From an uncultured delta proteobacterium (GTDB lineage: Bacteria > Myxococcota_A > Polyangia > Fen-1088), in NCBI GenBank assembly GCA_963767925.1, contig CAVYGB010000002.1, positions 512,001 to 576,000 of the forward strand: a DNA stretch of 64,000 bases, written 5' to 3'. Every line of letters begins with the position of its first letter. Positions within the stretch are counted from its first letter, which is position 1. This document shows positions 1,383 to 31,050 of the stretch, piece after piece. The position numbers and the translations under genes are program-made. Below the pieces are notes generated by a model. That model was not told the origin of the DNA. It searched no databases and worked only from the letters and a program-made list of their open reading frames with translations.

Positions 1383-1555
1383 GACCCCTCACCCCTCCCT
1401 CTCCCCGCTCCGCGGGGCGAGGGCGAACGATTGGACTGCTGCACCGATCATCCTCCGAGTGGAGGCAGCAGCCGTGCATTCATCGGAGATTTCGGCTCTC
1501 CGGTTGTCCGTTCGCCCTCGCCCCGCGGCAGCGGGGAGAGGGAGGGGTGAGGGTC
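1383..1555. repeat. REP-like inverted doublet (intact reference copy)
   Basis: Left arm gacccctcacccctccctctccccgctccgcggggcgagggcgaacg and its inverted right arm cgttcgccctcgccccgcggcagcggggagagggaggggtgagggtc; each arm is itself a hairpin. Confidence 0.9.
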
Positions 1556-15720: not shown

Positions 15721-16062
15721 ACGGTTCGAGCCGCGCCGCCGGAGGCCCCTCACCCCTTCCCTCTCCTTGCGCCGCGGGGCGAGGGCGAACATTTCAGCCA
15801 GGTGCCGCGAGCATCTTCGCGAGCGGGCGCCCGTCGCAAATTCTCCCGCGATTTCCCTCACCCGGGCCCATTCGCCAAGGTGCTCGACGGCGGAGTCACC
15901 GAAATTTCCGCGCCCCGTTGCCCGTTCGCCCCCGCCCCGCGGCAGCGGGGAGAGTCCTCGTGACGCCGGAGACGGCCTCACCCCACTGACGGAAATGGTG
16001 AGATCACTGATCTCGAGCGGTTGCGGCCCTTTTCCATAGCAGGGAGGGGTGAGGGGGCTCCG
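15721..16062. repeat. REP-like inverted doublet with interrupted right arm
   Basis: Same arms as 1383-1555; right arm is split within ggggag|agggaggggtgaggg. Confidence 0.85.
15953..16040. mobile_element. 88-bp REP-inserted element, copy 1 (MITE candidate)
   Basis: Absent from intact REP arms; near-identical to 30932-31021; ends ...tttccatagc. Confidence 0.6.
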
Positions 16063-21201: not shown

Positions 21202-21489
21202 GGAGGACCCCTCACCCCTCCCTCTCCCCGCTGCCGCGGGGCGAGGGCGAACAATCGGCCACCTGCCTCGATCATCTTCCCGAGCGGAAGATCTGCGGCC
21301 CCTTCGTACCGGGCATCCTCTCCCCGCTGCCGCGCGCCGAGGGCGAACAATCGGCCACCTGCCTCGATCATCTTCCCGAGCGGAAGATCTGCGGCCCCTT
21401 CGTACCGGGCATCCCGGGTTCCGCTGTCCGTTCGCCCTCGCCCCGCGGAGCGGGGAGAGGGAGGGGTGAGGGGGCTCCGCTCGAACCGT
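21202..21489. repeat. REP-like inverted doublet with internal 96-bp tandem duplication
   Basis: Arms as in 1383-1555; 21221-21316 is repeated at 21317-21412. Confidence 0.88.
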
Positions 21490-21498
21490 TCGGTGTGG

Positions 21499-22587
21499 TC
21501 AGGGCTGGCGACGGCGGACGACGCTGGGGACCTGGCGCAGGATGGCCTGGCGGGTGGGGCGGGCGGCGGCGGCCAGGCGGGCTTCCTCTTTCATCAGGCG
21601 GCGGAAGGCGGCGTCGTCGAGGCCGGCGCGGGCCATCCAGGCGGCGGCGTCCTCCTCGGAGGTGAGGCCCTGCGCCCGGCGGAACGCCGAGGTGGCCGCC
21701 TCCACCTCGGCCTCGTCGGGGGCGGGATGGGGCAGCAGGAGGCCGAGGGCGCGTTCGGTCGCCTCGCGCAGCACGCCGGGCAGGGCGTCGGGATCGTCCC
21801 GCTCCAGCTCGGACAGCAGGCGGGCCCCGTCCTCGACCCGGTCGGGGCCGGGATCGGTGCGCTCGACCTGGCGCTCGAGCTCCAGCCAGGCCTCCGTGCG
21901 GGGCAGCTCGAAGGCGGGCGGGGGACCTGGCGCCGGGAAGCCCTGGGCCCGGTCGGCGCCCATCACCTCGAGCAGGTGGCAGGCGTCTTCGGCCTTCACG
22001 TCGACGGCGCGCCCGAAGCCCTCGCCCAGCCAGCGCTCGAAGGCGGCCATGCCGCCCGGGGTGGGGGTGGGCGCGCTGACGACGGCCTGCTCGAGGATCG
22101 CCGGCCAGGTGCGGTGCGGGTGGAACAGCCGCCGCGCGCCGGAGAGCACCGCCGCGGCGTCGTCGCGGCTGAACACCGCCTCGGCGACCGCCTCCGAGCA
22201 GGTGGCGCGCACGTTGACGAGCGCGACGACCGGCGCGGGCGCGCCCGCCACCTCGTCGTCGGCCTCGAGGTGGCCGTCCCGGAACCACTCGAACACCGTC
22301 CCCACCCCGCGCATGCCGAAGGGGGCCAGCTCGACCGCGCGGAGGGCGCCGGTGCCGGCGGCGCCGTAGACGGCGATGCCGCGGGCGAGGGCCCAGAGGA
22401 TCTCCTCGGGGCCGACCGCCAGGCGCGGGTCGGACGCGCCGTCGATGAGGCCGATGGCCTGGGGGGCCTGGCGGGCCGCCCGGTAGAGATCGCCCGGGCC
22501 GGCGGGCGGCAGGAAGATCGCGTCGGGCAGCAGCCGGGCGCCCTCGGCGGCGGCCAGGGTGGGACCGGTGAAGACGACGACGGTCAT
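21499..22587 (-). CDS. tfuA: TfuA-like protein (degenerate motifs)
   Basis: VVFTGPTL, PPAGPGD, GLIDG, GALRAVELAPFGMRGVG, DDEVA, VNVRAT; overlaps ycaO stop. Confidence 0.85.
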   Translation of the reverse strand: MTVVVFTGPTLAAAEGARLLPDAIFLPPAGPGDLYRAARQAPQAIGLIDGASDPRLAVGPEEILWALARGIAVYGAAGTGALRAVELAPFGMRGVGTVFEWFRDGHLEADDEVAGAPAPVVALVNVRATCSEAVAEAVFSRDDAAAVLSGARRLFHPHRTWPAILEQAVVSAPTPTPGGMAAFERWLGEGFGRAVDVKAEDACHLLEVMGADRAQGFPAPGPPPAFELPRTEAWLELERQVERTDPGPDRVEDGARLLSELERDDPDALPGVLREATERALGLLLPHPAPDEAEVEAATSAFRRAQGLTSEEDAAAWMARAGLDDAAFRRLMKEEARLAAAARPTRQAILRQVPSVVRRRQP

Positions 22588-23834
22588 GTGCCCAGCTCCT
22601 GCTTCTGGCGGGCCACCCGCGCGCCGGGCTGGTAGCCGGGCAGCTCGCAGAAGGCCTCCAGGCCGGGGACGACGACCCGCACCACCTGGACCGGCAGCTC
22701 GCGGCGGGACAGGTCGACGACGATCACCTCGGGCAGGTCGTGTTCGCCCAGCACCTCGGCGGTCCAGCGCAGGGCCTGGGTGGCGGTGAGAAAGCCGCGC
22801 GAGGGGATCTCCCGGAAGTCCCGGGGCGGCGGCCGCGTCTCCTGCAGCAGCGCCTGGCTGCGGGCGTGGCTCTCGGCGGTGGCGGGGGCCGCGGGCTGGC
22901 GCGGGTGCAGCTCGTCGCGGATGCCGAGCAGGCGGGTCAGGCGGCGCTGGGCCGCTTCACACAGGGCCCGGGCCAGGGCGACGCTGCGGCTGGGGTGGCA
23001 GCCGGCCCCGCGGGCGCTGCCCACCGGGCGGGCGGGGTCGTGCACGCGGTCGAGCGCCAGGCAGAGGAAGCTGGCCACGCCGAGGTCGCTGCTGGTGTCC
23101 CAGACCGCCACGTCGACCTCGGCGTCGCGGTAGGCCTGCAGCAGCGTCCGGCAGGTGTCGTCCTGGACGGTCGCGAGATCGATCCGCCGCTGCCACTGCA
23201 GCAGGCCGGGCAGCCCGAGGAACAGCGTGGTGCCATCGCGCTCGATCAGCTCGTACAGCCCGTGGGCGATGGCCTCGTCGAGGCGGGCGCCGGCGGCGAG
23301 GCCGCCGGGGCTGGCGAGGAAACGGCCGCTGCCTTCGGGGGGCGGCTGGCGCAGGTCGAGCTGCACCGTCTCGAGCGGGAGCCAGCGGAGCTGGCCGTTG
23401 CGCAGCTCGCGCCCCTCGATCCAGAGCAGGCGGTCGTCGGGCGCTGGGGCGGATCCGGGCAGGCGGGCCACCTCGGCCAGCGGCTGGTTGCGCCCGAGCT
23501 CGGCCGCGCTGGCCAGGCGCAGGGGGGCCTCGATCCGCTCGGCGTGCCAGGCCTCGACGGCGTCGAGGATGCCCGAGATCCGGGCCGCGTCGGGGGTGAA
23601 GCCGCGGCCCTGGCTGATGGCGAACGAGCGCGCTTCGGGCCGCACCACCATGACGGTGGGGATGCCGAGGGTGTCGAGGCCGGTGACGTTGGCCAGCCGG
23701 GTGATGCCCAGCGCGGGCAGGTGGGGGCGCAGGTTGGCCAGCAGCGCCGCCGGGCCCAGGGTGCGCAGGTCGGAGGCGTTGACGTCCGGTCCGTCAGAGG
23801 GGCCCGGGTCCCTTGCAGGTTCATCGTCGCGCAC
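22584..23834 (-). CDS. ycaO: YcaO-like protein (TfuA-associated type); start uncertain
   Basis: GITRLANVTGLD, SQGRG, ELIERD, GAGCHP, ALCEAAQ, VVRVVVPGLE. Confidence 0.88.
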   Translation of the reverse strand: MRDDEPARDPGPSDGPDVNASDLRTLGPAALLANLRPHLPALGITRLANVTGLDTLGIPTVMVVRPEARSFAISQGRGFTPDAARISGILDAVEAWHAERIEAPLRLASAAELGRNQPLAEVARLPGSAPAPDDRLLWIEGRELRNGQLRWLPLETVQLDLRQPPPEGSGRFLASPGGLAAGARLDEAIAHGLYELIERDGTTLFLGLPGLLQWQRRIDLATVQDDTCRTLLQAYRDAEVDVAVWDTSSDLGVASFLCLALDRVHDPARPVGSARGAGCHPSRSVALARALCEAAQRRLTRLLGIRDELHPRQPAAPATAESHARSQALLQETRPPPRDFREIPSRGFLTATQALRWTAEVLGEHDLPEVIVVDLSRRELPVQVVRVVVPGLEAFCELPGYQPGARVARQKQELGT

Positions 23835-30898: not shown

Positions 30899-31050
30899 GT
30901 CCGTTCGCCCCCGCCCCGCGGCAGCGGGGAGATTCCTCGTGACGCCGGAGACGGCCTCACCCCCACTGAAGGAAATGGTGAGATCCGTGATCTGGAGCGG
31001 TTGCGGCCCCATTTCCATAGCAGGGAGGGGTGAGGGGCCTCCGCTCGAAC
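30899..31050. repeat. REP right arm interrupted by insert
   Basis: Matches 15921-16062. Confidence 0.85.
30932..31021. mobile_element. 90-bp REP-inserted element, copy 2
   Basis: Same insertion point in the REP arm as copy 1; internal inverted repeat ggaaatgg/ccatttcc. Confidence 0.6.

Follow-up and report, generated by a model that had tools for sequence, protein, structure and literature searches.

Short inserts in the repetitive extragenic palindromes of an uncultured Polyangia bacterium as a candidate orphan derivative of an IS110-family element

In the genome of an uncultured Polyangia bacterium of the Myxococcota (here G000), two repetitive extragenic palindromes (REPs) within a 64,000-nucleotide stretch (the window, G000:C2:512001-576000) are interrupted at the same internal point by a short structured sequence, which raises the question of whether this sequence derives from a mobile element or is part of a longer variant of the repeat. 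The G000 assembly contained a total of 9.34 Mb in 13 contigs, with 71% GC and a completeness rating of 83.8%. The nearest named relatives in a search with a CarD protein were uncultured Polyangia/Myxococcota genomes. The original prediction, made from the letters of the window, proposed a non-autonomous, REP-targeting derivative of IS110/IS1111 insertion sequences. Comparison with a full-length IS110-family element from G024, a genome of the same family, supported such a derivative in the AG core, the ends, the REP target, the orientation, and an inverted repeat, and the insert is very probably an orphan non-autonomous IS110-family derivative, that is, loosely speaking, a MITE (miniature inverted-repeat transposable element). 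The case for IS110 descent is made from the core, termini, target, orientation, and inverted-repeat architecture held in common with this candidate cousin, and not from a cognate parent.

The sequence read-out agreed with the predicted arrangement of two inserts at one REP junction. An 88-bp insert at positions 15953-16040 and a 90-bp insert at positions 30932-31021 each split a REP between GGGGAG and AGGGAGGGGTGAGGG; intact REPs in the window, at 1508-1555 and at ~21428-21475, read ...gcggggag-agggaggggtgaggg. The insert starts with AGTCCTCGTGACG and ends with TTTCCATAGCAG, and with its junctions (marked by a slash) reads AG/TCCTCGTGACGCC at the start and CCATTTCCATAGC/AG at the end. Alignment of the copies showed that the tips are not inverted repeats of each other. 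Because AG stands at both junctions (AG/TCCT...ATAGC/AG), the boundary of the insert carries an ambiguity of 2 bp, such as a recombination core of 2 bp would produce. The earlier statement that there is no clear target duplication was correct with respect to any longer duplication but did not account for this dinucleotide.

Copies of the insert were sought throughout G000 by BLAST, by genome search, and with an nhmmer profile run without filters, and the three approaches were concordant. Ten full copies were found (eight on contig C2, one on C10, and one on C13), with a mean pairwise identity of 92.7% (range, 86.7 to 100%). When their flanks were tabulated, all ten were located in REPs, at the same position (GGGGAG/AG../GG) and in the same orientation, and all were intergenic. 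AG was present at the right junction of 10 of 10 copies and at the left junction of 9 of 10 (copy 2 in the window has AT), and removal of the insert together with one AG restores an intact REP. No larger element with the ends of the insert was detected in G000 with the nhmmer profile. Incomplete or altered copies included a 36-nt left-end fragment at C10:1197595, which runs into another repeat family, a right-end fragment of ~40 nt at C2:1527108, and a diverged, internally duplicated copy (72% identity) downstream of a carD gene at C2:1312714. The diverged copy (L023:1470-1655; G000:C2:1312683-1312868) lies directly past the carD/cdnL terminator in a stretch of lower GC content (58 to 66%); tandem duplications affect the first 18 nt and, separately, the right-hand two-thirds (64 nt) of this copy. 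It is missing from the corresponding site in G001, a genome of the same genus as G000, and is regarded as an old copy.

The insert was not found in any of 40 relatives searched, G001 included. Among 88 family genomes (the "order"-level genome set is identical to the "family" set, at 89 genomes), no real match was obtained; weak BLAST matches occurred in four, and the two that were inspected were coding-like sequence. An exact 24-mer and a two-part degenerate pattern of the insert had 0 matches in the genome_contigs collection, and the degenerate pattern and a 22-mer had 0 matches in the metagenome_contigs collection, both scans being exact-pattern searches that diverged relatives would escape.

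IS110 transposases were present in 13 of 24 same-family genomes searched. A 1,502-bp IS110-family element of G024 (unit L140:1738-3239) was delimited by six aligned copies (loci L140-L145). It encodes a protein of 421 amino acids with the domains DEDD_Tnp_IS110 (PF01548; E = 2.6e-24) and Transposase_20 (PF02371; E = 1.6e-20), downstream of a 233-nt non-coding region, and the stop codon is the TAG within CATAGCAG, in the right end of the element. The element starts with AGTCCTGACGG and ends with TTTCATAGCAG, with AG on both flanks. These flanks read ..cccctctcctcg-loop-cgaggagAG/TCCTGACGGGG... and ...GTTTCATAGCAG/GGCTAGGGTGAGGAG, the left junction being ..tcccctctcctcg-loop-cgaggagAG/TCCTGACGGGGCGCTGCCGCACCCCGAAAGATGAAACAG and the right junction CCGGACAGGCTGTTTCATAGCAG/GGCTAGGGTGAGGAGTCCGG; one further G024 copy sits at ..CTCGGGGAG-AG-GCG... 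The element thus cuts a REP homologous to that of G000 at the homologous place and in the same orientation. An element that encodes an IS110-type (DEDD) transposase and shares ends with the insert was found in a related genome, with ends that are only partly alike. Among the 89 family genomes, transposases like that of G024 were confined to G024 itself (seven matches) and to G043, which carries a 92% relative of the element; otherwise identity was at most 40%.

Of the IS110/IS1111 assignment, the IS110 family stood, but the IS1111 type was not supported. IS1111 elements have inverted repeats within a few bp of the two ends and a non-coding RNA region that lies downstream of the transposase gene. 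An inverted repeat is present here, but its left arm lies 33 to 47 nt from the tip, and the long non-coding region upstream of the G024 transposase gene corresponds to the layout described for the IS110 group (PMC12288879).

The AG core is common to the insert and the G024 element, and both begin AGTCC..TGACG and finish TTTC(C)ATAGCAG. Alignment of their left ends gave a score of 23, which was reached by 19 of 2,000 shuffles and is specific; three other IS110 elements scored 8 to 13. Each also contains a repeat inverted between left end and right end, taken as the best exact match between the two. In the G024 element the arms are ATGAAACAG at positions 33-41 and CTGTTTCAT at 6-14 nt from the right end; in the element of G090, which is 38% related, they are GAAGCCGAC at 39-47 and GTCGGCTTC at 8-16; and in the insert they are GGAAATGG at 40-47 and, counted from the right end with the core included, CCATTTCC at 8-15. 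The position of the inverted repeat is thus kept in all three, with a different sequence each time, and circularization would let its arms pair into a hairpin that spans the junction. The parts of the two window copies and the uninterrupted REPs of the window are as follows.

15738..15791, minus strand: partner REP, inverted, forming a head-to-head pair with the host of copy 1
15928..15952, plus strand: left hairpin of the host REP of copy 1 (GCCCCCGCCCC-gcggcagc-GGGGAG), with a rare T>C arm variant
15953..16040, plus strand: mini-element copy 1, 88 bp, AG/TCCTCGTGACG...TTTTCCATAGC, with end homology to the G024 IS110 element
~15953-16007 and ~16008-16040, plus strand: left-end part and right-end part of copy 1
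15965..15976, plus strand: left-end palindrome GCCG-GAGA-CGGC
15991..15998, plus strand: left arm of the left-end/right-end inverted repeat, GGAAATGG, element positions 40-47
16000-16014, plus strand: inner hairpin gagatc..gatctc of copy 1
16028..16035, plus strand: right arm of the inverted repeat, CCTTTTCC in copy 1 and CCATTTCC in the other copies
16041..16058, plus strand: second AG (core), then third REP arm GGAGGGGTGAGGGGG, copy 1
30907..30931, plus strand: left hairpin of the host REP of copy 2, with the same T>C variant
30932..31021, plus strand: mini-element copy 2, 90 bp, left core AT
30971-30978 and 31009-31016, plus strand: inverted-repeat arms of copy 2
31022..31039, plus strand: second AG (core), then third REP arm, copy 2
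1514..1555, plus strand: uninterrupted REP, an empty target site; inverted partner at 1410-1424, minus strand
21434..21475, plus strand: uninterrupted REP, an empty target site; inverted partner at 21234-21248, minus strand

Most REPs of the window are arranged head to head, at 1410(-)/1514(+), 15772(-)/15928(+), and 21234(-)/21434(+). The motifs that had been named for copy 1 were recovered (both hairpins, ggaaatgg, ggaga, and cctcacccc), except that the partner of ggaaatgg reads ccttttcc in copy 1 and ccatttcc in copy 2. The genes that neighbor the two copies are unrelated and encode a major facilitator superfamily (MFS) transporter, a DUF4440 protein, a HIT-domain protein, and a sigma-70 factor. 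The best explanation of the structure is that a parent element contributed about 55 nt from its left end and about 35 nt from its right end, fused together; by its sequence, the G024 element is a cousin of this parent and not the parent itself.

Several results weigh against descent from an IS110 element. The alignment of the right ends gave a score of 14, which was reached by 47 of 2,000 shuffles and is not specific, with elements of another IS110 clade scoring 9 to 18. The likeness is confined to the termini (5 + 5 nt on the left and about 12 nt on the right), and over its inner 36 nt the insert showed no resemblance to the G024 element (score of 19, where shuffles averaged 17.9). When 12 IS110 loci of relatives were searched with the insert by BLAST, the only matches were of 11 to 12 nt, one of which was recognized as the true right-end match to the G024 element after the G024 copies had been aligned. 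In the 401 genomes of the class and one further genome_contigs record, G024-like transposases did not exceed 40% identity. In G000, PF01548 and PF02371 had 0 matches (positive controls matched in 6 of 14 control genomes), tblastn with the IS110 proteins of G001 and G024 gave no match at E ≤ 0.01, and next to the truncated and diverged copies a tblastn search for remains of a transposase returned only noise. A closer parent was not found in the 40 relatives, the 88 family genomes, or, by exact pattern, genome_contigs and metagenome_contigs; at 83.8% completeness of the G000 assembly, the absence of the parent from the genome is not proven. Not all copies are independent insertions, as the window pair shares a rare REP-arm variant. 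Finally, no empty orthologous site was found: the G001 counterpart of the copy 1 intergenic region is without any REP and is uninformative, and the copy 2 locus has no G001 orthologue. The insert is termed an orphan because G000 holds no cognate autonomous element, a circumstance that leaves its descent unaffected; the parent has presumably been lost from what is represented in the G000 assembly, and the ten copies are probably immobile fossils.

The first alternative is a composite, longer REP variant, in which 88 bp were captured once (for example, as filler at a break) and spread only together with the REP by copying through REP-associated tyrosine transposases (RAYTs) or by gene conversion, an IS110 element playing no part. 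This is quite improbable, although every copy lies inside a REP and insert positions 14-33 resemble an inverted REP tail: the palindrome at 15965-15976 plus the adjoining CCTCACCCC repeats the canonical REP tail GGGGTGAGGGGTCTCCGG in inverted form, with 17 of 19 positions in agreement. The REP profile of G000 is cGTTCGCCCTCGCCCCGCGGCAGCGGGGAGAGGGaGGGGTGAGGGGtCtccgG (ungapped, 143 copies), and roughly 300 to 420 REPs are present, many as head-to-head pairs; the insert is missing from at least 240 uninterrupted REPs. The copy at C2:1830921 is flanked on both sides by a different, long-loop REP family (family-B, with 51 genome matches) at the homologous point GGGGAG/AGGGA, and the two families share only ~8 to 10 identical bases adjoining the insert. 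Inserts with 100% identity to each other are carried at C2:445590 and C2:1126406 by REPs that differ in loop and right flank. The complete third arm GGAGGGGTGAGG is missing in 3 of 10 copies (uninterrupted REP variants without a third arm also exist), and the 72%-identical copy lies outside any recognizable REP left arm. Besides G001, with 19 matches, four more genomes of the family contain the REP itself, G014 being among the carriers, and none of the carriers has the insert. Also against a composite REP is the existence of an actual IS110 element with matching termini, AG core, target, and inverted repeat. Given the second REP family, the identical inserts in differing REPs, the missing third arms, and the REP-bearing relatives that lack it, the insert is an insertion into pre-existing REPs and not a longer REP variant. 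Confinement of all copies to one monophyletic REP subfamily, which had been named as the outcome that would reduce the insert to such a variant, was not observed.

Copying together with the REP nevertheless accounts for part of the distribution. The T>C change noted in both interrupted arms is real and rare, occurring in only three REPs of the genome (the two window hosts and C2:920754), and the two window copies also share the insert variant ggttGcgg. Because both the rare arm variant and the insert variant are shared, the window copies are sisters from one REP-plus-insert unit, and the caveat of the original prediction that one insertion may have been followed by REP duplication was right for this pair. 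At least once, therefore, a REP-plus-insert unit was duplicated as a whole, taking the REP arm along as the composite-REP explanation expects. The arms of host REPs are more decayed than those of uninterrupted REPs, with a perfect 15-mer arm in 2 of 10 versus 141 of 240. The sequence GGGGAGAGGG occurs 366 times in the genome, 316 of them within REPs, and REP structure and this 10-mer alone are not separable as the target. A head-to-head partner was identified by a strict pattern for 6 of 11 hosts versus 134 of 420 REPs overall; one host was unrecognized and the partner of copy 1 was missed, and the difference is too weak for a claim of preference.

That a REP can capture foreign sequence near this junction, a point in favor of the composite-REP explanation, is illustrated at G000:C10:1753150-1753330 (minus strand), where 73 nt from within a pyruvate carboxylase gene interrupt a REP at nearly the same junction. 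Their source, 96% identical, is at G000:C2:1364547-1364619. Microhomology, in the form of GAG and of a run of G, is present at both joints, and the piece has the look of filler DNA taken up at a break or through template switching. Separately, REP left hairpins were found in tandem arrays of fixed period, in which the stretch between hairpins is repeated too; the periods were 117 bp x6, 144 bp x5, 81 bp x7, 66 bp x3, and about 68 bp x3. The array loci are the following.

G000:C2:460074-460689: REP hairpin array
G000:C2:471871-472475: REP hairpin array
G000:C2:1390792-1391306: REP hairpin array
G000:C2:742950-743150: REP hairpin array
G000:C2:1701636-1701900: REP hairpin array

The distribution of REPs among contigs was uneven, with ~60% on C2 (2.26 Mb, 24% of the assembly) and ~2 to 3% on C8 (3.31 Mb).

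Movement by a Y1 (HUH) transposase, with the insert as a single-stranded, palindrome-associated mini-element of the IS200/IS605 type or moved by a RAYT and inserting 3' of GGGGAGAG next to the REP hairpin, is very improbable. G000 contains 11 paralogous Y1_Tnp genes, a number also compatible with REP copying, the most divergent of which has an inverted REP 34 nt past its stop codon and may be the REP's own RAYT. The insert lacks terminal inverted repeats and contains internal hairpins, and its target is a strict left-flank motif, all of which would suit Y1 movement. The two hairpins of the insert are, however, unlike each other and unlike the REP hairpin, and its ends agree with an IS110 element. 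A promoter-like stretch was all that the 11 Y1 loci had in common, none of them sharing ends with the insert, and nhmmer found nothing insert-like beside them. The same dinucleotide at both junctions is expected from a 2-bp crossover and not from IS200/IS605 insertion. An IS200/IS605-type palindrome-associated mini-element was rejected on the differing subterminal hairpins and on the ends of the Y1 loci, as was a classical MITE of a DDE transposon, in view of the missing terminal inverted repeats and a core that is only 2 bp and ambiguous. The Y1_Tnp loci (L001-L010 and G000:C2:1804393-1805085) encode paralogues of ~225 amino acids with the promoter-like upstream stretch in common and no conserved element ends. 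By contrast, a palindromic MITE of another family, of ~175 bp and with terminal inverted repeats of ~20 to 40 bp (ctagtcccctggaacggtga...) was seen at L014:1595-1790 (G000:C10:1726806-1727000), where it adjoins the mini-element copy C10:1726710; it recurs after G000:C2:853460 and downstream of a Y1 gene at G000:C10:706280.

With an IS110-family derivative as the preferred reading, the suggestion that the insert might carry its own guide RNA was considered. Guide-like words were found in the clade to which the G024 element belongs, in four AG-flanked elements of ~1.5 kb.

L140, in G024: clade element with guide-like words
L156, in G090: clade element with guide-like words
L160, in G043: clade element with guide-like words
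L157, in G082: clade element with guide-like words

In 4 of 4 elements, the left-end non-coding region contains, at positions 118-127, a 7-mer that comprises the left target and core (AGGAGAG, TCAGTAG, TAAGTAG, and TCAGTAG), each equal to the target of its own element. A second 7-mer that comprises the right end and core (ATAGCAG or CTAGTAG) was present in 4 of 4 at positions 186-198, and the word of G024, ATAGCAG, equals the right end and core of the insert. Each word was reached by 4 to 29 of 1,000 shuffles, and the left-target word covaries with the target. Left target and left donor guides are described as matching the top strand including the core (PMC11208160), and the words in the clade fit this rule as published. 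The clade is a clear natural example of putative bridge-RNA-type guide words in Polyangia. The insert itself is not considered to be guide carrying, because positions 118-127 and 186-198 lie outside the ~55 nt of left end that it retains, and the original suggestion was not borne out. The cctcacccc segment, which had been read as a match to the right flank, was rejected as a guide; it is part of CCGGAGACGGCCTCACCCCC and is better explained as a portion of the inverted REP tail (17 of 19 positions).

Other signs of an RNA were likewise not obtained. Rfam gave no meaningful match for the two window copies, the diverged copies, or the G024 left end, and no bridge RNA loops with target and donor words were recognizable in the insert. 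The folding energy of the insert alone was not better than that of shuffles (z = -0.26 and -0.88), the hairpins showed no compensatory change among ten copies that are too alike for covariation to be informative, and a pattern scan found no sigma-70 promoter or terminator. It is hardly credible that the insert is a small RNA or a regulatory DNA element under host selection, for instance a structured transcript or a palindrome bound by a protein, with only an incidental location in REPs. In favor of this are the consistently intergenic location and the GAGATC-N3-GATCTC hairpin, whose 3-nt loop varies in 4 of 10 copies and whose 12 stem positions are changed in 2 of 10. Against it are the Rfam, covariation, folding, and promoter or terminator results, the unrelated neighboring genes, and the absence from the same-genus genome and the 88 family genomes.

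The preferred reading, an IS110-family derivative, would imply the following mechanism. A bridge-RNA-guided DEDD recombinase, supplied in trans by a full-length parent, would have recognized the circle junction of the mini-element (...CCATAGC-AG-TCCT...) and recombined it with the AG in the REP motif GGGGAG-AG-GG, an exchange that would account for the AG on either side, the constant orientation, and the lack of any longer duplication. The parent would be related to the 1.5-kb G024 element, with an expected start AGTC(C/T)TCGTGACGCCGGAGACGG and end CCATTTCCATAGCAG. Mobilization in trans is presumed from published work on ISPpu9 and IS621, and RNA guidance of the insert is presumed as well. We tentatively suggest, as a rather doubtful extension, that the mini-element is a natural minimal donor that keeps the core and a junction-spanning hairpin and was possibly spread further by the REP machinery. 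The junction hairpin may run from the right-end arm through AG and about 40 nt of left end to the left-end arm, and the inverted repeat at the junction may be an unrecognized cis element for excision or donor capture, beyond RNA-DNA pairing. The sister copies of the window hint at what this suggests, that REPs with the insert are still copied by the REP machinery, so that an orphan relic spreads without its recombinase.

One further observation was made in the window. At 21499-23834 (minus strand), a TfuA-like gene (PF07812) is followed directly by a 416-amino-acid open reading frame on the same strand, and the two may represent a YcaO/TfuA-type pair.

The IS110 family is the source of the bridge-RNA/seekRNA recombinases under development for genome engineering, and little is known of the needs of donor DNA beyond the core-adjacent bases or of non-autonomous IS110 relatives. 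The guide-like words, target, and ends of the related G024 element are directly readable from its sequence. Together, the insert and this element point to a natural donor of 88 bp and to an inverted repeat that is conserved and spans the junction. For genome annotation, odd "long REPs" can be fossil IS110 ends, and such relics can outlive their transposase.

Among known systems, REP/REPIN-RAYT systems correspond to the setting of the insert, with a REP as host repeat, head-to-head pairs, and Y1 transposase genes present, but the insert is outside the REP consensus, occurs in two REP families, and is missing from relatives with the REP. The G024 element and its 92% relative in G043 resemble the insert in the inverted repeat (left arm at ~33 to 47, right arm 6 to 16 nt from the tip) but are full length, the G024 element having the 421-amino-acid DEDD transposase and the 233-nt upstream non-coding region with guide-like words that the insert lacks. 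As described for the IS621 bridge-RNA system (PMC11208160) and for IS1111/IS110 seekRNA elements (PMC11187229), a 2-bp core is common to donor and target and insertion is site specific, often into REPs, as for the insert. Unlike IS621 as published, the insert is without a recognizable target- or donor-binding loop, and the core on the strand of the transposase gene is AG in the clade of the insert and CT in IS621. A 22-bp donor is reported to be enough for IS621 when bridge RNA is supplied in trans (PMC11208160).

The closest parallel is with ISPpu9 of Pseudomonas putida KT2440, an element of the IS110 group that is described as recombining at AG in REPs, after which AG flanks the element (PMC12288879). 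Its A box contains a GCCC-N4-GGGC palindrome, comparable to the GCCG-GAGA-CGGC of the insert, and a short palindrome near its left end resembles one in the 3' REP fragment (PMC12288879). The related MITEPpu9 is described as a non-coding ssr9 module with A'/B' end boxes, which forms circles when transposase is supplied in trans (PMC12288879). In a comparison that was not made base by base, the insert had no sequence similarity to the Pseudomonas elements. By described architecture, MITEPpu9 and the insert are both non-coding modules with the end sequences of an IS110-group element; both lie inside REPs at AG, with AG ending up at both junctions; and both have a left-end palindrome that resembles REP sequence and occur in tandem or rearranged copies. 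By the same description, MITEPpu9 shares its genome with seven copies of ISPpu9 and contains a small RNA gene that is expressed, whereas the insert is only 88 to 90 bp long, gives no sign of an RNA gene, and lies in a genome without a detected IS110 transposase, that of an uncultured Polyangia bacterium instead of a Pseudomonas. MITEPpu9 was the one non-autonomous case found described in the literature, and the insert would add a second such case, independent of the first, far smaller, and from another phylum.

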